The position numbers and the translations under genes are program-made. From Candidatus Omnitrophota bacterium (GTDB lineage Bacteria > Omnitrophota > Gorgyraeia > Zapsychrales > Fredricksoniimonadaceae), in NCBI GenBank assembly GCA_903860135.1, contig CAIOPG010000004.1, forward strand, positions 272,648 to 336,647: a DNA stretch of 64,000 bases, written 5' to 3'. A model generated the notes under the pieces. The model was given only the letters and a program-made list of their open reading frames with translations, did no database searches and was not told the origin of the DNA. Position 1 is the first letter of the stretch; each line of letters starts with the position of its first letter. Of this stretch, positions 54,463-64,000 are shown one piece after another.

Positions 54463-56196
54463 ATGAGCGTATCGCCGGAAGATCAGCCCAGGGATTTTAT
54501 CCGCGACATTGTTGCGGGGCATGTTGAGGAAAAAAGGTATCCGGGTATCGTGACGCGTTTTCCGCCGGAGCCCAATGGGTATCTGCATATCGGGCACGCG
54601 AAATCGATCTGCCTTAATTTCGGGATCGCCCGGGAAAATAACGGGCGCTGCAACCTGCGCATGGACGATACCAATCCGGCGAAGGAAGATGTGGAGTATG
54701 TCGATTCGATCACGGCTGATGTGGCGTGGCTGATCGACGGTTGGGCCAACAAAGCCCTGGGGTTAAGAGCCGACGGGAGGCCGTTCTTTGCCAGTGATTA
54801 TTTTGACGCGCTGTATGAATATGCGCTCACGCTGATCCGCAAGGGCAAGGCCTATGTGTGCGACCTGACGCCTGAGGATACGGATAAATTCCGCGGCGCG
54901 CCCGACAAGCCCGGCGTGGAAAGCCCGTTCCGTTATCGTGCGATGGAGGAAAGCTTGGATCTTTTCCAGCGCATGAAAGCCGGAGAGTTTCCCAACGGCG
55001 CGCGAACCCTGCGCGCCAGGATCGATATGGCCGCGCCGAATGTCTGGCTGCGCGACCCGATCCTTTACCGGATCCGTCATACGGAACACCACCAGTCCGG
55101 CCGGCAGTGGTGCATTTATCCGATGTATGATTTTGCGCATGGCCTGAGTGATTATACCGAGGGGGTCACCCACAGCATTTGCACCCTTGAATTTGAGGTG
55201 CACCGCCCGCTGTATGACTGGATCCTCGAGGTGCTCGACCTTCCTTTGCCGTTGCCGCATCAATATGAATTTGCCCGTTTGAATGTAACGCATACGGTCA
55301 TGAGCAAGCGCAAACTTCTGGAACTTGTTCAGAAGGGACTGGTGTCCGGGTGGGATGACCCGCGCATGCCCACGATCTCCGGTATGCGGCGACGGGGCTA
55401 TCCGGCCGCGGCGATCCGGGAATTTTGCCGTCGCATCGGTGTGGGTAAAGTGGAGAATATGATCGACCTTTCCCTGCTGGAATTTTGTGTGCGCGAACAG
55501 CTTAACAAAGCAGCGTTACGCCGGATGGCCGTGCTCCGGCCGCTTAAAGTTGTGATCGAGAATTATCCTGACGGGCAGACGGAACAGCTGGCGGCGGTCA
55601 ATAACCCCGAAGACGCTGGTGCCGGGTCGCGGCTGGTGCCTTTCAGCAAGGTCATTTACATCGAGCAGGATGACTTTCGCGAGAACCCACCCAAGGAGTT
55701 CTTCCGCCTGGCACCGGGGCGTGAGGTGCGGTTGCGGTATGCGTATTTCATTGTCTGCCGCGATGTTGTTAAAGACCCGCTGACGGGTGCGGTTGTGGAA
55801 TTGCACTGTACCTATGATCCCGCCACGCGCGGGGGGGATTCGCCCGACGGGCGTAAAGTGAAGTCCACAATCCACTGGGTGGCGGCGAACGAGGCGGAGG
55901 ATATTGATGTCCGGCTGTATGACCGTTTGTTTACCGTTGAAGACCCGGCAAGGATCGAGTCTGGCGTGGACTACAAGGAGCTTCTCAATGCCTCATCCTT
56001 GACGCTGATCAGCCAGGCCAAGGCGGAGCCGTCGTTGCTGACGGCTGTGCCGGGGGCGGTGGTGCAGTTTGAGCGCCTGGGGTATTTTTGTGTGGACCGG
56101 GACAGCTCATCCGGGCATAAAATATTCAATCGTACGGTAACACTCAAAGATGACTGGGCGAAGATCGAAAAACGGGGCTGTTTGCCCAAGCGTTAA
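54463..56196 (+). CDS. glnS: Glutaminyl-tRNA synthetase
   Basis: [23 protein letters not shown] (HIGH), VMSKR (KMSKS), GlnRS anticodon-binding beta-barrels. Confidence 0.9.
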
Positions 56197-56290
56197 CAGG
56201 TGATGATTTTTATGAAATTTGTATGTTTTCAGGGTATACTTTAAAAAGAATTAAAAGATAACAGCAAGTTAAACCTCCAGGGGAGAAGAA

Positions 56291-56701
56291 ATGAAAAAGT
56301 TTATCAAAGCTGACGGCTGGGTTAAAGTTCCGGTACAGACCAAGGCGTATCCCTTGCAAGCGATCTATTCTGCCGGATATGTTTTCATGGACAAGGCATA
56401 CCTTTACCTTGACCTTGAGGCCAAGGACAAGGTGGTGGTGTGGCTTAAGCCCAAGGCCAAGGCTGACCTTGACAAGCTGGCCATGGAGTTTTGCCAGGAA
56501 CTTTTAAATTACGCGCATTATTTCTCCAGTTTGAAAGTCAATGCCGAGAGCACGAAGCTTCTCTTGCAGCGCGCGCTATTTTCGGCGGCTCCGTCGATGG
56601 TCAAGGAAGCTGAAGAGAAAGAGATCCAGGACCTCATCAAGGAGCTCGAGCAGGAAGAGGAGAAAGAAAACCGCAAGCCTGTCAAGAAAGGCAAGAAATG
56701 A
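56291..56701 (+). CDS. Hypothetical protein (136 aa, Lys/Glu-rich C-terminus) at head of radical-SAM cluster
   Basis: ORF only; no motif recognised. Confidence 0.3.
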   Translation: MKKFIKADGWVKVPVQTKAYPLQAIYSAGYVFMDKAYLYLDLEAKDKVVVWLKPKAKADLDKLAMEFCQELLNYAHYFSSLKVNAESTKLLLQRALFSAAPSMVKEAEEKEIQDLIKELEQEEEKENRKPVKKGKK

Positions 56702-56925
56702 GCACGCCTTTTTTAAAGAAAGACAAGACGGGCATTTGCCTTAAACTGCATACGGCTCTGTATGGGCACGATGCCATTGAGCAGTTCAGGGGTGCTTACG
56801 GTGACGGGCTGACATTCGTCAGGCGTGGCGCGTACTGGATCCTTTCTTTTGCCGATGCCCTTGAAGAAGATGTTGTTGATTCTCTGGACAGCCTTCTGGT
56901 TTTATCGCGGAACAGAAAAAAGTAA
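56698..56925 (+). CDS. Hypothetical protein (75 aa)
   Basis: ORF with 4-nt overlap to upstream gene. Confidence 0.3.
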   Translation: MSTPFLKKDKTGICLKLHTALYGHDAIEQFRGAYGDGLTFVRRGAYWILSFADALEEDVVDSLDSLLVLSRNRKK

Positions 56926-56952
56926 TATCAATCCTATTGTGAGAGATGCCCT

Positions 56953-58356
56953 ATGGCCCGAACGAATGATGACGTGATCCTGCCGTTCAATTCCGCTAGG
57001 ATCCGTGATAAATATCTGGTAACAAATATGCTCGGTGCCTGGGAGGTGCTTGATCCGGCGGAATTCAGGCTGTTGAATGCCTTAAAACCCCTGCCCGGGA
57101 CGCCGCTGTGGACGCGCCTCAAAGAGCGCGGGATCGTGGTCGATGACAAGAATATCCTGCCCATGCTTCAGAAGTACCGGGAGCTTAACAGCAATCTTTT
57201 TTCAGATACGTCATTGCACATCGCGGTGGCAACGACGAAATGTAATTTAAGCTGTGCGTATTGTCAGGCAGGAGCCGTACCTCAAGAGGATATGACGTAT
57301 GAGGTGGCCGCCAAGGTGCTCGAATATCTTTTTGGTGTGCGCAATACATCTGTTTCTCTGGAATTCCAGGGCGGGGAGCCGCTCATGAACTGGCCGGTGG
57401 TCAAGTTTGCCATTGAACATGCGCGTCAATATAATACGACGGGAAAGAAGCTCAGGATTTCTGTTGTGACCAATATGCTTCTATTGGATGATGAAAAAAT
57501 GAAGGTTTTGGCGGACAACGATGTTGACGTGTGCACATCTTTAGATGGCCCTAAAGCGGTGCATGATAAAAACAGAAAGTATGTGAGCGGCCTTGGTTCA
57601 TATGACGAGGTGATGGCCAAGATCCGGCGCTTCAAGGAAAGATTTGGCCGGTCTACAGGTCTTTTAGCTACGATTACGGCGGCTTCACTCGATCATGCCG
57701 AGGCGATCGTGGATGAGTATGTCCGGCTTGGCCATACGGAGATATGCCTGCGGCCTGTTAATAACATGGGCACGGCGCGTTGTTCCTGGAGTGATATTGG
57801 TTATTCAGCGGAAGAGTTCAATGCCTTTTACGGTCGCGCGATGGATCACATCCTGAAGCTGAACGCCAAGGGGACATTGATGATGGAGCGGATGGCGCGT
57901 GTGATCCTGACCAAGGTGCTCGAGGGGAAGGACCCCGGGTATGTGGATCTCATGAACCCTTGCGGCGCCGGGCGCACGACCATGGCGTATATGCCCGACG
58001 GCAGTTGTTATCCGTGCGATGAAGCGCGCATGATCGGCGAAGACATGTTCAAGCTGGGGAATATCCTTTTAGAAACATATGATGACATGATCAAGAAAGA
58101 AAACCTGCAACATCTTTTGCAGGCGTCATGTACGAATTTATGGCAGGCGTCGTCAGTGTTTTCCCCCTGGAGCGGGCATTGCCCGGTGGTCAATTATGCC
58201 CTTCAGCAGAATATTGTCCCCAAGGTGCACTGCTCTTCCCAGCACAAGATCATGACCGGGCAGTTCATGTATTTATTTGACAAGATCGTGGCGCAAGGGG
58301 CGGCTCTGGAGACATTCAAGCGGTGGTTAGCAGGAGACAGTCATGGAAAAAAATAA
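56953..58356 (+). CDS. Radical SAM enzyme with SPASM/twitch-type C-terminal Cys cluster (467 aa)
   Basis: CNLSCAYC = CX3CX2C; GGEP motif; C-terminal …NPCGAGRTTMAYMPDGSCYPCDE… and further Cys pairs. Confidence 0.8.
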   Translation: MARTNDDVILPFNSARIRDKYLVTNMLGAWEVLDPAEFRLLNALKPLPGTPLWTRLKERGIVVDDKNILPMLQKYRELNSNLFSDTSLHIAVATTKCNLSCAYCQAGAVPQEDMTYEVAAKVLEYLFGVRNTSVSLEFQGGEPLMNWPVVKFAIEHARQYNTTGKKLRISVVTNMLLLDDEKMKVLADNDVDVCTSLDGPKAVHDKNRKYVSGLGSYDEVMAKIRRFKERFGRSTGLLATITAASLDHAEAIVDEYVRLGHTEICLRPVNNMGTARCSWSDIGYSAEEFNAFYGRAMDHILKLNAKGTLMMERMARVILTKVLEGKDPGYVDLMNPCGAGRTTMAYMPDGSCYPCDEARMIGEDMFKLGNILLETYDDMIKKENLQHLLQASCTNLWQASSVFSPWSGHCPVVNYALQQNIVPKVHCSSQHKIMTGQFMYLFDKIVAQGAALETFKRWLAGDSHGKK

Positions 58357-58636
58357 GAAACAACCCCGGAAGAAGATCGAGATCAAAAAGACCCTGAAAG
58401 CTTTTCTGGCCGATGAGGATGGCTTTGTGAGCAAGGAAACGATCCTCAAGGTCGGCCTCGCCACGGTGGCCGGCATCGGGGTGTTGGGTGCGATGTCACC
58501 CGCTGACGCAGGGCATACCAATTATATGACGCATAATAACACGATGAATTTTACGCCGCAGGTTGTTGATGGTTGTTTGGTTCCCAACACAACGCACACG
58601 AATATGGATGTGCCGTATTCACATAACAGTTATTGA
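58343..58636 (+). CDS. Small protein (97 aa): Lys-rich N-terminus, hydrophobic segment, His/Asn/Thr-repeat C-terminus – candidate precursor peptide
   Basis: …GHTNYMTHNNTMNFTPQVVDGCLVPNTTHTNMDVPYSHNSY with four H-x-(N/S)-x repeats; overlaps the end of the upstream rSAM gene. Confidence 0.4.
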   Translation: MEKNKKQPRKKIEIKKTLKAFLADEDGFVSKETILKVGLATVAGIGVLGAMSPADAGHTNYMTHNNTMNFTPQVVDGCLVPNTTHTNMDVPYSHNSY

Positions 58637-58660
58637 AAAAGTTTCTGCGCGAGGGCCGCA

Positions 58661-59491
58661 ATGAAGAAGTTGTGCAGCATTAATTGTTTATTATTTCTAC
58701 TCGCCGTGTCGTTGTTTGCTGTCACATTTGCTGTTGCCCAAGAAGGGCCTGCACCTGGCGTGGAAGAATCCAGACCTCAGGAAGAAGCTTTGCCAGATGG
58801 TCAGGCATCGTCACATGATTTTTCCAGGATGAGCCCGGTGTTATGGTCTTACGCGGTGGCGGCGACGGATGGGGCGGTTTCGTGTCAGGAGTTATCGACA
58901 GAGAATGGCAAACGGTCGTGTCAACTAGAGGCTAAAGTATTGGCAAGTCGCAGATTGCTGGCAGAAGGACGGTGCGGGCGGTTTGAGTCAGGATCTATTG
59001 CTTTGAAGGTGTGCACGGCCATTAAGGGCAGGAGTTGTGCCTCTTGGCAGGAGCCGATCAGAAGCATATGTGAGGCTGTTATTAAGACAGGCGCAATGGA
59101 TCAACGCACGGTCATGGTGAAAGATGTTGCTGAAAAAGTTGAAATGGCATCACAGGAAGAAACAGATCAAGGCGTGGCGTGGCGGGCAGAGGTTGGCGGA
59201 TTGAAATTGAGCGACCTTGCCATACTTTTTGCAGTTATACAGGGATACCGTGAGCCCGTATTAACCCGACGACAGGAAACGTGCGAAGCGTATGCACGGG
59301 CATATTATGTTGGGGATGGCTTTGATCCTGAATATTTTCGATGTACCATACTGTTCAGCGATGATCCTGTTAAGAAGGCTAAGGATATTGATCGCGACCT
59401 GGACGTGTATCGTTCCGTGCGTAGCGGCGCGGGACGTGAGGCGTGTGACAGCATCCAAACGGTCGTATTGCGGGAAGCCTGCGTGCGTTAA
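58661..59491 (+). CDS. Secreted Cys-rich hypothetical protein (276 aa)
   Basis: Signal peptide (LLFLLAVSLFAVTFAVAQE), ~14 Cys. Confidence 0.4.
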   Translation: MKKLCSINCLLFLLAVSLFAVTFAVAQEGPAPGVEESRPQEEALPDGQASSHDFSRMSPVLWSYAVAATDGAVSCQELSTENGKRSCQLEAKVLASRRLLAEGRCGRFESGSIALKVCTAIKGRSCASWQEPIRSICEAVIKTGAMDQRTVMVKDVAEKVEMASQEETDQGVAWRAEVGGLKLSDLAILFAVIQGYREPVLTRRQETCEAYARAYYVGDGFDPEYFRCTILFSDDPVKKAKDIDRDLDVYRSVRSGAGREACDSIQTVVLREACVR

Positions 59492-59494
59492 TTA

Positions 59495-60514
59495 TTATAC
59501 AGTTTCATGTGGTATAAGGTTCCCGACAGGGAACTTTTTTGTATAGACGGATCGATGTGATTTTATAAAAAGAGGATCCGGTGCCATATAAGAGCCAGAT
59601 ATTGTGTGGGCAAGTGCACGGCTTCCTCCACAGCATTGTGCCAGGCAGATACAAGCGTGGCAGGTCGCCGGAAGGTATGCGGGATCGTTGAGTTGCCTTA
59701 AGAAAGGATGTTTCCATGCGGCCTGCAGATCTGTACCCAGGTTTTCAGGGATAAAGTAACTTGGCTTCCAGAAGCCACGCGCATCCCAGACAAGCCTAGA
59801 ACGTCCGTCGTCGGCCTGGCCGCCAGCCATGACTTTCCTGGCGATTGAAGTGTTGAGCGGGAGGCACAGGGGGAGCGCGTTGCCGATGATGGCATGGATC
59901 CCGTCACCTTGGAGTTTGAGCAATGACCAGCATAATCCGCTATATCTCTTTCGGTCTTGGTCAGGCGGCAGGAACGGCCCAGTCATGGGTCGAAACAGTT
60001 CCCAGGTGTGTGGCCTGATCTTCTTGACAAGGGTCGTGTATTTCGAGAAATTTTGAAGGAGGGTTGGCGTGATCACCGTCCCAAGGCGGACGACAGGGAG
60101 GCAGGCCTTGAGCAGGAAGATATTTCTGATCTTTTCTTCGAATGAAGCGGATGTTCGGGTCATCGCTTGTGTTGAGGTGCTATTAAAGCCCTGCAGGGAA
60201 ATCAGGGCATTGTCAACATGGCTGATGAGGACATTGAGTGCTTGGGGTGTGAGTAAGGTTGCGTTGGTGTTCAGTAAGACATAGAATTTGTGTTGTTTGG
60301 CATAAGCCAGCATGCGCGACAGGTCTGGCACAAGCAAGGGTTCGCCGCCGGTAAAGCGCACGGCGGGAACGTGATAATGCCTGGCCTGGTCGAGGATGTC
60401 TTTGACGGCTGAGAATGTCATGTGCGGGGCGCGTGCGGCAGAATTGGTGCAGTAGCCGCAGTGCATATTGCATTGGCCGGTGATTTCGATGACGATTTCG
60501 GATGGATTCTTCAT
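59495..60514 (-). CDS. Radical SAM enzyme with C-terminal SPASM/twitch-type Cys motif (339 aa)
   Basis: CNMHCGYC = CX3CX2C; GGEPLL; C-terminal …ATCHACICLAQCCGG…. Confidence 0.8.
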   Translation of the reverse strand: MKNPSEIVIEITGQCNMHCGYCTNSAARAPHMTFSAVKDILDQARHYHVPAVRFTGGEPLLVPDLSRMLAYAKQHKFYVLLNTNATLLTPQALNVLISHVDNALISLQGFNSTSTQAMTRTSASFEEKIRNIFLLKACLPVVRLGTVITPTLLQNFSKYTTLVKKIRPHTWELFRPMTGPFLPPDQDRKRYSGLCWSLLKLQGDGIHAIIGNALPLCLPLNTSIARKVMAGGQADDGRSRLVWDARGFWKPSYFIPENLGTDLQAAWKHPFLRQLNDPAYLPATCHACICLAQCCGGSRALAHTISGSYMAPDPLFIKSHRSVYTKKFPVGNLIPHETV

Positions 60515-60557
60515 GTGGCTTTCATGTGTTAAAGATTAATCGAATGTTGATTATAGC

Positions 60558-61343
60558 ATGTGTGTGTTCACCATGCGTTTTGAAGAGAGATTCGGGGGTG
60601 TTGCCATGAATAGGCCGTTGGTTTTCTTGCGCGATGATGATATAGGGACAGATGACGGCATTTTTTTTGAGTTGGCATCTTTTTATTCTGAACGACATAT
60701 CCCGGTTGTTTATGGGGTTATTCCGGATCGTTTGGAATTGCGCATGATCAGCGTCCTTCGGAAAGCCAAAAAGATTGATCCTGGTCTTGTTGATATTGTT
60801 CAGCATGGCTTTCGGCATATAAATTACGCGGCGCCTAAACTGGCAAAATATGAATTTGGCGCACGACGTACGTATGCGCAGCAGTTGCAGGATATTAAGT
60901 CGGGGCTAGGTATCATGCGTAATATTTTCAGTGAAGACTTTACACCAGCTTTTATTCCACCGTATCACGGGTATAATCAGGACACGTTAAAGATTATACA
61001 GGAACTTGGATTTTCTATTTTTTCAGCAGGGCAGTTGGCGGCTCTTTCCGGTAAGGCATTTCTTGATCTTCCGGCGAGGGTGTCTTTGAATGAATTTCAA
61101 CCTGATGGTTCTTCCAGGGTGCTCAATGTCCAAGAAATGATGGCAACGTTTCGGCGGGTGTTTGTGACAGGCGGTGTGATTGGCATTGTGTTTCATCATC
61201 ATCTCATTAAAACATCGGCAGATATGCGAGCGATGAAAGATTTCTTTCGTTCTTTGGTACGCTGGCGAGATGAGGAGAAAATAAGGTTCGGTCTTTTTTC
61301 TGATTTTATTCGTGCACAGGCCAAGAAAAGTGCGGTTGCATGA
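60558..61343 (+). CDS. Polysaccharide deacetylase-like (NodB/DUF2334-like) protein
   Basis: …RDDDIGTDDG…VVYGVIPD…VQHGFRHINY… resembles carbohydrate esterase 4-type D…D / H…H motifs; true start possibly MNRPLVF (60606). Confidence 0.4.
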   Translation: MCVFTMRFEERFGGVAMNRPLVFLRDDDIGTDDGIFFELASFYSERHIPVVYGVIPDRLELRMISVLRKAKKIDPGLVDIVQHGFRHINYAAPKLAKYEFGARRTYAQQLQDIKSGLGIMRNIFSEDFTPAFIPPYHGYNQDTLKIIQELGFSIFSAGQLAALSGKAFLDLPARVSLNEFQPDGSSRVLNVQEMMATFRRVFVTGGVIGIVFHHHLIKTSADMRAMKDFFRSLVRWRDEEKIRFGLFSDFIRAQAKKSAVA

Positions 61344-62233
61344 GAATCCTTTCGCCGTTGCTTTCGGTTAATGAGGTTCAGCCCTTGTGTGAGGTGGGTG
61401 CAGATGATTTCTTTTGTGGTTTGGTAGATAAAGAAAGAACATTGAATAGCCGCCCGAATACCGCAGAGCACAGCTTCAGCAACAAGGAGGATCTTCGACG
61501 GGCTGTGGTTCTGACGCATGCCCAAGGGCGGCGTATCTTTCTGGTCATTAACAGTTTGCCCCCGCTCGACATCAATCGGGGGCTGCGTCAGGCTGTCATA
61601 GCCAAAGAAATCGGGATAGACGGGCTTATTGTGGCCAGTCTTTTGCTCATCAAGAAAATCGATGATCTTGGCCTTGGTCTTGAATTGCAGGCCAGTAGCT
61701 TGACCACGGCGATTAATAGCGAGGCAGTTTTGTTCGCGCAGCGGCTGGGGGTGTCTCACGTTCATCTGCCGACGCAGATCGGCATGGAAGAGCTTGGGCG
61801 AATGATGAAATATGTCCCTGGGATTAAGTTCAGCATTTTTGTCCTCGGCGGCTTGTGTGTTTATGCCGAACAGTTTTGTTCCCTGCATGAAGGTTTCGCC
61901 GAGGATTTTATTCCATGCCAGCATTTTAGGGCTTTGGGCATGGTTGGACGCGGTGGTATGCCTCTAGCAGAATGTGACAAAAGACATAATCAGCCGGCAT
62001 TCAGCTGTGGGCTTTGCGTGGTAAGAAAGTGCCTGTCTTTGGGGGTGGATACGTTGAAAATCGAGGGGCGCTATTTGCCGTTGGACAAAAAAGCACAACG
62101 GGTTTCCATGGTCAGGCAAGTTATTCAGGCAGCAGTGGCTAGTAAGGATGATAATGTTTTTATTCAGCATTGTCAGGGAATTTTTCAAAAGGATCAGGGA
62201 CGTCCATGTAAGCCGGAATTCTGCATTTTTTAA
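61340..62233 (+). CDS. Peptidase U32 family protein
   Basis: N-terminal MRILSPLLSVNEVQPLCEVGADDFFCG (ELLAPAG…GADAVY pattern) and C-terminal …VDTLKIEGR motif characteristic of U32. Confidence 0.6.
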   Translation: MRILSPLLSVNEVQPLCEVGADDFFCGLVDKERTLNSRPNTAEHSFSNKEDLRRAVVLTHAQGRRIFLVINSLPPLDINRGLRQAVIAKEIGIDGLIVASLLLIKKIDDLGLGLELQASSLTTAINSEAVLFAQRLGVSHVHLPTQIGMEELGRMMKYVPGIKFSIFVLGGLCVYAEQFCSLHEGFAEDFIPCQHFRALGMVGRGGMPLAECDKRHNQPAFSCGLCVVRKCLSLGVDTLKIEGRYLPLDKKAQRVSMVRQVIQAAVASKDDNVFIQHCQGIFQKDQGRPCKPEFCIF

Positions 62234-62249
62234 GAACTGGTTGCTGAGC

Positions 62250-62909
62250 ATGACAATGAAAAAAAGTTTGCATAAGGTTCAGCGGTTTGAGCTGGGGCAT
62301 GAAGCCTGCGAGCGGCTGTTGCCATTGCCCATGGTCATTGCCAACGAGAAGAAAAGGGTTGGTCGCGGAGGGCTTTCGCTTGTAACGCCGATCGTCAGTC
62401 AGGATGGATTGAAGCGCATTCAGGATTGGGCACTATTATTGGATGACAATGATGAAATTGTAGCCAATGACCTTGGTGTCCTTGTGATGGTGGATCGTGA
62501 TTTTAGAGCCAGGCCTTTGATCGGCCGTATCCTTGGCCGGAATATTATTCTTTCTTTGGTCGGAATGATCCATGATCCTGTTTTAGCGGAAGAGTTTCTT
62601 GCATTATTAGGCAAGAGGATCGCCGGGATCGAATGTGATGCTGACAGTTCTCCTGATGTGATGTTTTTTTTACAGTCGAAGATGGAGATACGTCCATGCC
62701 ATCGTTCCGGTAAGATATTTGGTGTTACCCGGCGGTGCATCTTTAAGGCCAAAGTGGCAGATAAGTTTGGTGCTTGCCGTAAGGAATGTCAGCATATGAA
62801 AATATTGGCAGCCAATGCGGTGCTGGGCAAGTTGTTTGTGTTGCAAGAGAATGCCCTAATTTTGCATTCATCACCCAGTAACGGGATAAAACGGATGAAA
62901 GACACATGA
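62250..62909 (+). CDS. Hypothetical protein, possible second U32-like subunit
   Basis: Position and weak similarity only; start inferred at MTMKKSL after upstream stop. Confidence 0.3.
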   Translation: MTMKKSLHKVQRFELGHEACERLLPLPMVIANEKKRVGRGGLSLVTPIVSQDGLKRIQDWALLLDDNDEIVANDLGVLVMVDRDFRARPLIGRILGRNIILSLVGMIHDPVLAEEFLALLGKRIAGIECDADSSPDVMFFLQSKMEIRPCHRSGKIFGVTRRCIFKAKVADKFGACRKECQHMKILAANAVLGKLFVLQENALILHSSPSNGIKRMKDT

Positions 62910-63871
62910 TTTTAGAAGCTGGTGAAAAACGCAGGCGTTTTTTGCGGCGCGTTGCCGGGGCCGTGGACGGCAAGGTTTATATTGGTCCGGAACAGGTCTA
63001 TTTGCCGGTTACCAACCGTTGTAATCTGAGTTGCCGTTACTGCTGGTTTCATTCTCCCGGAAATCCCTTGCGCTTGCATCCTCGGCAAGATATGCCGTTA
63101 GCGGATTTTAAGAGGATCGTGCGTGAATGTGTTGCCCTTGAAGTGGATACTCTTTTTCTTTCTGCTGAAGGAGAGCCGACATTACATCCGGAATTCTTCA
63201 GCATGATGTCTTTTTTGAAAAAGCAACCGCTGGAAGTGACCATTTTCAGCAACGGCACATTTTCCTCTGCGCGACGGAAGGATGTTCTTAAAGCGGATCG
63301 TATTGGTATTAATCTTGGTGCCCCGGAGCGTGAAGGTTATAAATTATTGCAGGGGGAGGATCTGTTTGATCATGTGATCAAGAATATAAATTTTTTGGTC
63401 AAGGCTCGGGATAAAAATAAGAAATCATTTAAGATTGGTGTGGATTATGTGGTTAATAAAGATAATATTCATCAGATAAAAGAAACTGAGAAATTCTTAA
63501 GCTGTCTGGGAGTTGATTCTTTCACGCCGACGCTGATGAAGGAGCACGACTGGAATGGCGGCGTGCGCGTGGATGATCCATCGACGTTGTTTTTGGCTGA
63601 AGGCAAACCTTCGCCGCGTTGTTTTCACGGTTGGTTCCAGATGATCAGGGCACTTGATGGCCGGATACGGCTTTGTCCGCAGTTATCGCAGGAGATCATC
63701 GTCGTCGATCAGAATTCTTTACGTGAAACATGGTTTTCAGATAAATTTATGGAATCGCGGTTAAGGGGGCGGTGCGGTGATTTTGGAAAAAAGTTTCGTG
63801 ACTGCAGGCAATGTCTTTATCATCAACGTAATACAGCAGTATTGAAAAGAGTTTTAAAAAGAACGGTATAA
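62906..63871 (+). CDS. Radical SAM enzyme with C-terminal Cys-rich (SPASM-like) region (321 aa)
   Basis: CNLSCRYC = CX3CX2C; …GEPTLHPEF…; C-terminal CFHGW…LCPQ…CGDFGKKFRDCRQC. Confidence 0.8.
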   Translation: MILEAGEKRRRFLRRVAGAVDGKVYIGPEQVYLPVTNRCNLSCRYCWFHSPGNPLRLHPRQDMPLADFKRIVRECVALEVDTLFLSAEGEPTLHPEFFSMMSFLKKQPLEVTIFSNGTFSSARRKDVLKADRIGINLGAPEREGYKLLQGEDLFDHVIKNINFLVKARDKNKKSFKIGVDYVVNKDNIHQIKETEKFLSCLGVDSFTPTLMKEHDWNGGVRVDDPSTLFLAEGKPSPRCFHGWFQMIRALDGRIRLCPQLSQEIIVVDQNSLRETWFSDKFMESRLRGRCGDFGKKFRDCRQCLYHQRNTAVLKRVLKRTV

Positions 63872-64000
63872 GGGTAGTCGGGTATGGGGAAGCTATTGAA
63901 ATATTATGATTATTGCCATGAAGCTTATGAGCCGTTGACAGCTTGCCGGAAGAAGCTATCGTCTGACAGGTTGTTTTATAATTCTCTTGAGGGAAGTTCA

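Follow-up and report, generated by a model that had tools for sequence, protein, structure and literature searches.

Haft and Basu reportedly described the His-Xaa-Ser (Hxs) system in 2011 (work cited as reference 10 in PMC9062424), and it remained an in-silico prediction for more than a decade, until the antiphage result obtained in Escherichia coli in 2026. What was known already is a radical S-adenosylmethionine (rSAM) module with a His-x-Ser substrate, the subject of one experimental study. The E. coli HXS system is an antiphage system that blocks the entry of phage DNA (Li et al. 2026, PMC13128918). The canonical gene order hxsD-hxsB-hxsC-hxsA is found in 99.6% of systems, and 99.7% are in Pseudomonadota (PMC13128918). 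The E. coli substrate, HxsA, is a poorly soluble protein of ~200 aa that is matured by HxsB, HxsC and HxsD and exported, with a non-canonical cleavage, and it acquires a +8 Da modification in its last HxS repeat for which HxsB and HxsC are both required; HxsC, which forms a core complex with HxsD, is essential, and electrostatic binding of HxsA to DNA has been proposed (PMC13128918). An annotated Aeromonas operon encodes HxsD (96 aa), HxsB (484 aa), HxsC (401 aa) and HxsA (192 aa, with HRSHRSHSSHRSH repeats), and is flanked by restriction-modification and Tn7-like genes. Here we describe a gene for a 97-residue peptide that overlaps the end of an rSAM gene in a 64,000-nucleotide stretch of Candidatus Omnitrophota contig CAIOPG010000004.1, the whole of which we call the window. 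Sequence comparison places the peptide in the already named Hxs system, an affiliation that a preliminary description of the open reading frame (ORF) had not recognised, and we consider it likely that the peptide is the precursor, or substrate, of an Hxs-type rSAM module, in an Omnitrophota-specific variant without HxsC. By the same comparisons, what is new is a family that lies below the curated cut-offs and is distinct in architecture, motif, taxon and genomic context.

The peptide gene and its Hxs module

The peptide gene, its ribosome-binding motif and the upstream enzyme gene are arranged as follows.

58343-58636, plus strand: HxsA-like precursor peptide gene; ATG start, 97 aa plus stop
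58332-58336, plus strand: Shine-Dalgarno motif AGGAG within the 3' end of hxsB; 6 nt ahead of the start codon of the peptide
56953-58356, plus strand: hxsB, rSAM/SPASM peptide maturase, 467 aa; CxxxCxxC at C97/C101/C104

Translation of the ORF gives MEKNKKQPRKKIEIKKTLKAFLADEDGFVSKETILKVGLATVAGIGVLGAMSPADAGHTNYMTHNNTMNFTPQVVDGCLVPNTTHTNMDVPYSHNSY. The coordinates of the ORF and the H-T-N, H-N-N, H-T-N and H-N-S motifs are as the preliminary description had given them, and so is the start inside the upstream rSAM gene: the ATG sits 14 nt within that gene, whose TAA stop is at 58354-58356, an arrangement consistent with the translational coupling that had been suggested. A start overlap of 8-29 nt recurs in 20 of the 21 loci that have a resolvable upstream ORF, always with a Shine-Dalgarno motif, and such a motif stands 6-12 nt (mostly 8) before the ATG in all 30 distinct loci.

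A single-sequence search returned 26 clusters of homologues with sizes of 60-118 aa, a profile search returned 246 clusters at 90% identity, and an exhaustive hidden Markov model search returned 208 representatives at 50% identity. All homologues with a source name come from Candidatus Omnitrophota metagenome-assembled genomes (MAGs), and all are annotated only as 'hypothetical protein', because the scores of the family fall below curated cut-offs. Scanning one genome per GTDB species gave 28 loci, and the source was again an Omnitrophota MAG in every case, although a few of these MAGs had been submitted under the label Planctomycetales. We refer to the compared loci as L001-L037 and to related proteins by P numbers. 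Contig L037 matches the window without a single mismatch over 15,340 nt, and the peptide ORF was called there by an independent gene caller. Lack of conservation, which had been named as an outcome that would speak against the gene, is clearly not what is observed (246 clusters, with residues up to 100% conserved). No Rfam family was found in 55500-61000 in a scan at E <= 1.

The pattern of nucleotide variation points in the same direction. In the codons of the conserved leader block in 29 loci, variation is seen at 14 of the 15 third positions but at only two each of the 15 first and the 15 second positions, and pairwise codon differences amount to 2778 synonymous versus 234 non-synonymous, counts to which the caveat applies that the loci were chosen through an amino-acid motif. 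The length of the 97-aa ORF is by itself not beyond chance: ORFs of ~100 codons are frequent in DNA of 48% G+C, and the antisense strand also has a stop-free stretch, which is a by-product of composition since selection acts on the sense frame. A chance ORF in an untranslated region is nevertheless effectively refuted by the conservation data, given hundreds of homologues, conserved Shine-Dalgarno motifs, variation concentrated at third codon positions and independent gene callers that call the ORF, and it retains virtually no probability. The homologues, the conserved synteny, the Shine-Dalgarno motifs, the third-position variation and the exact C-terminus show the peptide ORF to be a real gene under protein-level selection.

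By its profile match, the adjacent enzyme is HxsB. It passes the TIGR03978 HxsB model with 381 bits against a cut-off of 370, residues 9-459 aligning with profile positions 1-466; it has Pfam Radical_SAM and SPASM domains, and is 33% identical to the annotated HxsB of an Aeromonas plasmid. Its rSAM core is preceded by 88 residues, and the closest solved structure is 5WGG (E = 4e-31), which we take to be CteB, the SCIFF maturase whose N-terminal domain binds the leader. Together with the homology of the peptide leader to HxsA3 and HxsA4 considered below, this neighbour supports the leader-core precursor of a peptide made on ribosomes and modified after its translation (RiPP) that the preliminary description had offered as one reading. 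The rSAM cysteines are kept in 19-20 of 21 HxsB orthologues. Outside the rSAM motif, C194, C337, C352 and C393 are well conserved in these 21 orthologues, and C355, C410 and C427 are present in only five of them. A full SPASM domain has two auxiliary clusters, and most HxsB orthologues may have just one.

Two small genes precede hxsB.

56291-56701, plus strand: hxsD-like gene, 136 aa; TIGR03976 HxsD, 34 bits against a cut-off of 50
56698-56925, plus strand: second small HxsD-like gene, 75 aa; 4-nt overlap with the hxsD stop; NF038315, 18.6 bits against a cut-off of 41

The 136-aa protein has no match in the local Pfam copy. The precomputed annotation of the identical L037 protein, and of all orthologues, gives Pfam PF27806 HxsD, and the sequence contains 'ELLNY', readable as what is left of the LLNDYxLRE motif. 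With 62-83% identity across loci, this gene is the most conserved of the module; a sequence search of the PDB with its product gave nothing significant. Orthologues of the second gene, 73-74 aa long and 30-41% identical, stand at the matching position in L001, L003, L004, L005 and L009, and 27 nt separate the HxsD-like gene from hxsB. The order of genes in the window is hxsD, hxsD-like, hxsB, peptide and a gene for a secreted Cys-rich protein. Homologous small ORFs beside rSAM/SPASM genes, for which the preliminary description had recommended a search, do occur in other genomes: the HxsD-HxsB-peptide order is found in ~26 of 30 distinct loci, and two of the four exceptions are truncations at contig edges. 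Locus L004 has only four core genes, with unrelated genes on its flanks.

The window module is like the canonical Hxs system in its HxsB-type rSAM/SPASM maturase, with a putative small HxsD-type protein encoded upstream and a substrate gene downstream, and in the His-x-(small polar) motifs that follow a signal-peptide-like N-terminus, the last motif in the window being H-x-S, the type of the E. coli modification site. It differs in that HxsC is lacking, the peptide gene coming directly after hxsB, and in that a second HxsD-like gene is present. Neither local rSAM protein has HxsC among its best 25 NCBIfam families, and HxsC was likewise absent in BLAST comparisons with the Aeromonas and Leptospira proteins and in tblastn searches of the whole 64 kb with HxsC and HxsC4-like queries. 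The substrates also differ. Canonical HxsA has about 190-214 aa and tandem H-x-S motifs and, in E. coli, a peptidoglycan-binding domain, whereas the window peptide has 97 aa, three H-x-N motifs and one H-x-S motif that are dispersed, and no such domain; its core is without basic residues, unlike E. coli HxsA. No pairwise BLAST similarity of the peptide to Aeromonas HxsA was detected, and among HxsA models the NCBIfam scan gave only HxsA3, not the canonical one. Canonical Hxs operons lack the conserved secreted Cys-rich protein found in the window module, and their taxon is Pseudomonadota rather than Omnitrophota; a literature search for Hxs in Omnitrophota returned nothing relevant. We note a further arrangement on the Leptospira interrogans plasmid pLiSL34, where a 99-aa 'hypothetical protein' with HRSHSSHRSHSSHRSSH repeats (L035:3260-3559) is encoded directly upstream of hxsD in an hxsD-hxsB-hxsC operon. 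On its sequence this protein is evidently an unannotated HxsA, placed before the enzymes.

Peptide architecture and relation to the short HxsA proteins

Three segments can be distinguished in the peptide, the last of which carries the His motifs.

58343-58456, plus strand: leader n-region, residues 1-38; Lys-rich, 11 K/R, net charge +5
58412-58456, plus strand: near-invariant block DEDGFVSKETILKVG at the end of the leader n-region; proposed HxsB/HxsD docking site
58457-58510, plus strand: hydrophobic h-region LATVAGIGVLGAM (residues 39-51) and c-region SPADA (52-56); signal-peptide-like, A-x-A site before G57
58511-58633, plus strand: core GHTNYMTHNNTMNFTPQVVDGCLVPNTTHTNMDVPYSHNSY, residues 57-97 (41 aa); His/Asn/Thr-rich
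58514-58522, plus strand: core HTN, residues 58-60; first motif
58532-58540, plus strand: core HNN, residues 64-66; second motif
58574-58576, plus strand: core Cys78; sole core Cys
58595-58603, plus strand: core HTN, residues 85-87; third motif
58622-58633, plus strand: C-terminal HNSY (HNS being residues 94-96); fourth motif

The Lys-rich leader, hydrophobic stretch and His/Asn/Thr-rich core that had been described at first sight are real and are conserved across the family. All four His of the peptide lie within the core, and all four have Asn or Ser at +2 (p = 0.001 in a composition-preserving shuffle of the 41-aa core). Across the family, His makes up 11% of core residues, 88% of core His have Asn or Ser at +2, exactly one Cys is present in 103 of 119 cores, and the proteins always terminate in H-x-S-Y. 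Among 118 close relatives, D24, E25, G27, V29, G38, H94 and Y97 are 100% conserved; C78 is conserved in 99%, H85 and N87 in 97 and 96%, H64 and N66 in 92% each, and S96 in 92%, and the first motif, H58-N60, is specific to a subfamily (24-29%). The h-region has a median length of 14 residues (interquartile range 13-14) in 240 superfamily members, and in 226 of these a small-residue -3/-1 site precedes the first core His, which in the window reads P-A-D-A/G. A Pfam scan found no domain in the 97-aa peptide. An AlphaFold model of the peptide is of low confidence overall (pLDDT 60), with a predicted helix at 31-50 and a predicted beta-hairpin of 62-75 and 78-91 that turns at D76-G77 and would pair N66 with N87; in the hairpin 10-residue blocks have a mean pLDDT of 69-81, and helix and hairpin are used here only as tendencies. 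Some genomes have two peptide copies. Those of L028 and L029 are from the same MAG, nDJH2bin18, the L028 copy standing directly after an HxsD gene and lacking a dedicated HxsB. The two copies of L020 (87-395 and 5842-6267) are separated by 5.7 kb, and in L036:7555-8423 HxsB is followed by a tandem pair of genes for 142 and 140 aa, of which the shorter encodes family member P0131.

Residues 13-66 of the peptide match HxsA3 (NF038309) with 24.2 bits and E = 2e-5. The same model is matched by 25 of 27 family members, with a best E of 1.4e-13 (an estimated ~51 bits against the cut-off of 65), and the close family member P0007 aligns to the full HxsA3 model with 44 bits. More distant relatives, found with the family profile, have the same leader followed by HGSHGSH repeats, and score 58-70 bits on HxsA4 (NF038313), for which the cut-off is 55. 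Since proteins above the HxsA4 cut-off are within reach of the family profile, the homology of the peptide leader to the curated HxsA3 and HxsA4 proteins is clear at the level of sequence. The cluster names of 10 distant relatives were all uninformative. The likeness includes size (about 85-110 aa), the Lys-rich N-terminus, a shared K-D-E-x-G-x-(V/I)-S-K-E-x-(I/L)-L-K-(V/I)-G, a hydrophobic stretch of ~14 residues and the small-residue site, and many of the HxsA3/HxsA4 proteins finish in H-S-S-Y. The difference lies in the cores, which in our family have three or four dispersed H-x-N/S motifs and one conserved Cys in place of HGSHGSH runs.

Loci of this wider class have HxsD, sometimes a small ORF, then HxsB and an HxsC-like rSAM gene in either order, followed by one or two precursor genes. 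An HxsC4-like (NF038332) rSAM gene is found in some related loci, and the window has none. Only L001, L003 and L008 have a distant HxsC-like gene, which scores 165-175 bits on HxsC4 against a cut-off of 500 and 92-96 bits on HxsC against 268. Judging from the plan of the wider class, and from the HxsC-like gene kept in these three loci, the window holds a short-HxsA lineage in which HxsC has been lost and Asn has taken the place of Ser in most motifs. Three related proteins, P0195, P0208 and P0256, share this leader and have HxS repeats, after which come CCFPAGT... and sub-threshold matches to several Hint/intein-type Pfam models (E = 1e-5 to 1e-3), which suggests an Hxs substrate fused to a self-cleaving Hint domain.

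Proposed maturation, export and function

We propose that translation of the peptide is coupled to the hxsB message through the overlap and the Shine-Dalgarno motif, and that in the cytoplasm the invariant DEDGFVSKETILKVG would dock on HxsB, which has an N-terminal domain of 88 residues, and/or on the HxsD proteins. The block behaves as expected of a recognition sequence in that it is common to the whole superfamily. HxsB, probably with the HxsD proteins, would then modify the 41-residue core at H-x-N and H-x-S by 5'-deoxyadenosyl radical chemistry. These motifs are likely targets, because they are common to all Hxs substrates and the E. coli modification lies inside an HxS repeat. The modification would most plausibly consist of intramolecular cross-links, either His-C2-to-Cbeta three-residue rings of the kind made by HtkB, HaaB and YhhB, or a thioether to Cys78, or both, and we make no choice between them; a recurrent 339-aa rSAM enzyme encoded downstream may add a second modification. 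The hydrophobic segment of 13-14 residues and SPADA/G would act as a Sec-type signal peptide for signal peptidase I (SPase I), with an unusually long n-region, and from these segments we infer export and a cleavage that would release a modified His/Asn/Thr-rich peptide of ~41 residues outside the cytoplasm. The exported peptide would act with the co-encoded disulfide-rich secreted protein.

Known rSAM peptide systems offer partial precedents for such cross-links. In triceptides, His-C2-to-Cbeta three-residue rings are formed on HTK (HtkB), HAA (HaaB) and HNR (YhhB) motifs (PMC11499958). The HTN, HNN and HNS motifs of the window peptide are formally aromatic-X2-X3, HTK is one residue from the conserved HTN, and in both cases an rSAM/SPASM maturase gene stands beside a short precursor gene. 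The enzymes differ, window HxsB scoring far under the cut-offs on GrrM/OscB (78 bits), YhhB (72) and FxsB (70); over all the cyclophane-synthase models (XyeB, GrrM/OscB, FxsB, YhhB and AmcB) the range is 61-78 bits against cut-offs of 310-445. We know of no triceptide precursors with signal-peptide-like segments. After HxsB itself, the best families for the window enzyme are SCIFF (147 bits), PapB (143) and QhpD (128), which makes it closer to thioether-forming enzymes than to cyclophane synthases, and the core Cys that is 99% conserved could donate a thioether as in the SCIFF/CteB, PapB and QhpD systems. These scores too are far under the cut-offs, being 147 against 425 bits for SCIFF and 143 against 340 for PapB. 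Moreover, SCIFF and ranthipeptide cores are Cys-rich whereas the window core has a single Cys, and the common feature of the Hxs superfamily is H-x-S/N, not Cys. The general traits of RiPP precursors are present, namely a short gene beside a maturase gene, a conserved leader and conserved modifiable residues in the core.

Several observations weigh against the assignment of the peptide as a modified and exported Hxs substrate. At 24 bits, the peptide stays below the HxsA3 cut-off of 65, and it is without tandem H-x-S repeats; the window HxsD-like protein, at 34 bits on TIGR03976, is under the NCBIfam cut-off of 50. The +8 Da change in E. coli required HxsC as well as HxsB, and HxsC is absent here, where modification is predicted only. 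Export is deduced from the geometry of the segments alone, and a gene for an A24 prepilin-type peptidase in 12 of 29 related loci hints at other processing of the leader. Finally, in L004 (8653-10008), L007 and L013, HxsB is without CxxxCxxC (TTRRQGEAGHG being found instead) and scores only 236 bits on TIGR03978. These loci keep HxsD, HxsB and the peptide, with the 74-aa gene in L004 and L013, and have three Cys in the peptide cores. Because HxsB has lost the CxxxCxxC motif there, the role of the peptide in this subgroup cannot depend on HxsB radical chemistry, which suggests that another rSAM enzyme acts in trans or that HxsB has a non-catalytic role, as a chaperone or export escort. Such a role would be echoed by the canonical E. 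coli system, in which HxsB, HxsC and HxsD are needed for HxsA processing and export.

That the subgroup with degenerate HxsB still keeps peptide, HxsD and HxsB would also be expected if the peptide were an unmodified, small membrane-anchored accessory or regulatory subunit of an HxsB/HxsD complex, as would the fact that the leader, and not the core, is the most conserved part. However, H64, N66, C78, H85, N87, H94, S96 and Y97 are 92-100% conserved, the exact C-terminus included, the homologous HxsA3 and HxsA4 are curated as Hxs targets, and E. coli HxsA is a modified substrate. An accessory subunit is as such a very improbable role for this peptide.

The A24 peptidase bears on how the leader of a putative Hxs substrate would be removed. 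In a prepilin-like scheme this aspartic peptidase would recognise a class III signal and cut after Gly38 (...ILKVG/LATVAG...), leaving a 59-residue peptide anchored in a membrane or pilus with its modified tail exposed. Gly38 is 100% conserved, with a Lys-rich segment before it and a hydrophobic stretch after it, and the cleavage of E. coli HxsA is reported to be non-canonical. In the 12 of 29 related loci noted above (L003, L005 and L011 among them), a membrane protein of ~295 aa that passes Pfam Peptidase_A24 (34.9 against 26.5 bits), and in which both catalytic Asp motifs are readable, is encoded next to the orthologue of the 339-aa rSAM gene, and no canonical pilin gene (GFTLIE-type) is present in these A24-bearing loci as a substrate for it. 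Set against this, the hydrophobic stretch is only 13-14 residues long, where pilins have some 20 or more, and Glu is lacking at +5; after the stretch come a proline and the A-x-A site, a pattern seen in substrates of SPase I; and neither the 64-kb window nor the 6.8 kb beyond it contains an A24 gene. We consider prepilin-like processing of the window peptide to be unlikely. Canonical pilin genes are likewise absent from the window and the sequence just beyond it. In the 12 loci the A24 gene lies about 3-5 kb downstream of the peptide, mostly on the minus strand, and its product may be a dedicated leader peptidase for HxsA-like peptides, with their invariant KVG/L.

As to function, the E. coli precedent would make the module an equivalent of the HXS antiphage system, with a matured periplasmic peptide that blocks the entry of phage DNA. 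HxsB, HxsD and an exported His-x-Ser/Asn substrate would be common to both systems (PMC13128918). In other respects the two diverge. The window peptide has no peptidoglycan-binding domain, and the net charge of its core, without Lys or Arg, is -2; the window lacks HxsC, an essential component in E. coli; and 99.7% of canonical systems are in Pseudomonadota. Unlike the Aeromonas operon, the locus adjoins the gene for glutaminyl-tRNA synthetase and large clusters of rSAM and glycan-type genes, the flanks examined contain neither genes of mobile elements nor those of defence islands, and PADLOC on the local proteins returned only generic viperin-type rSAM similarity, with no defence-system call. 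Electrostatic DNA binding of the kind proposed for E. coli HxsA is unlikely here by comparison, because the core is acidic and without Lys or Arg, and an antiphage role is in our judgement improbable.

A role in metal binding, the other reading that the preliminary description had offered, would be compatible with the data and with the assignment as an Hxs substrate. The exported peptide could resemble a metallophore or metallochaperone, in which cross-linked His, Asn and Cys chelate Ni, Cu, Zn or Fe. Its core is 11% His with one conserved Cys and a C-terminal His-x-Ser-Tyr, the predicted beta-hairpin would bring H64/N66 near H85/N87, and L001, L003 and L004 have Rrf2 and an Fe-S protein encoded upstream, with a hybrid-cluster protein in two of these. 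The conserved module, however, has no gene for a transporter, TonB-dependent receptor or metal regulator, the window peptide has only four His, and the case is one of composition alone, such that we think this role rather unlikely.

Returning to the Hxs substrate reading, its fullest form would be a phylum-restricted class of exported peptides in which HxsB, without HxsC and with two HxsD-type partners, installs His-to-Asn/Ser (possibly Cys) cross-links, and which has a Sec-type export signal and a dedicated disulfide-rich periplasmic partner. We offer this combination tentatively, as a possibility about which we have more doubt than confidence.

Downstream genes, wider neighbourhood and significance

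The genes that follow the peptide, and the candidate operon signals, are these.

58661-59491, plus strand: gene for the secreted Cys-rich protein, 276 aa; signal peptide, 10 invariant Cys; unknown fold
59495-60514, minus strand: convergent rSAM gene, 339 aa; CxxxCxxC at residue 15
56212-56240, plus strand: promoter-like site upstream of hxsD; weak consensus match (9/12), candidate only
59516-59537, plus strand: terminator-like hairpin plus T-run after the 276-aa gene; pattern match, candidate operon end

Promoter and terminator sites occur in the region at background counts. A gap of 24 nt without a terminator-like site separates the peptide from the 276-aa gene, which is a candidate for co-transcription with it. 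The 276-aa protein is a divergent member of a family of secreted Cys-rich proteins of ~250 aa (hhalign probability 96.4%, E = 1e-9), and in most related loci a member of this family is encoded immediately after the peptide. Neither Pfam nor NCBIfam gave a match for the 276-aa protein, and a Foldseek search of the PDB with its AlphaFold model (pLDDT 64, from four sequences) gave only matches with E > 1 and a TM-score of about 0.14.

Orthologues of the 339-aa rSAM protein, 41-53% identical, are encoded within a few kb of the module in 18 of 30 distinct loci, and its best NCBIfam matches are AhbD and TIGR04053. It is a possible second maturase. It was rejected as a candidate HxsC, since HxsC lies outside its best 25 NCBIfam families and BLAST against Aeromonas HxsC gave E = 0.08. 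At least seven rSAM genes are found within ~11 kb adjoining the Hxs module (59495-64000 and, past the end of the window, in L037), and interleaved among them are a DUF2334/polysaccharide-deacetylase-like gene at 60558-61343 and, at 61340-62233, a U32-family gene with UbiU and TrhP as its best NCBIfam matches. Comparable rSAM-rich surroundings of the module are seen in other Omnitrophota loci.

A protein of ~405 aa is encoded two genes downstream of the peptide in L001 (11055-12251), L002 (10321-11541) and ~20 other loci. In L001 and L002 it has a weak precomputed match to Glyco_tran_28_C, and our own Pfam scan gave none. Many family cores have N-x-T sequons (for example HTN-V-T-T), and glycosylation of the peptide is conceivable. 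For the window peptide N-glycosylation was considered and rejected, as the ~405-aa gene is absent from the window, its product gave no match in that Pfam scan, and the conserved HTN (HTNMD) is no sequon.

More than 240 sequence clusters that were labelled 'hypothetical protein', because they score below the curated model cut-offs, can be placed with the Hxs substrates if our assignment is correct. The Hxs machinery would then not be confined to Pseudomonadota or to defence islands, and its target motif would tolerate Asn for Ser; the more tentative reading of a phylum-restricted class would add a non-defence role of this machinery outside Pseudomonadota. The window would hold a minimal natural Hxs module, the smallest of all in that tentative reading, with a single rSAM enzyme and a core of 41 residues that has three or four conserved target motifs and a conserved exact C-terminus, which should ease reconstitution, mass spectrometry and nuclear magnetic resonance. 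As such, it would make both Hxs chemistry, seen in E. coli as a change of +8 Da, and the function of HxsD directly testable.

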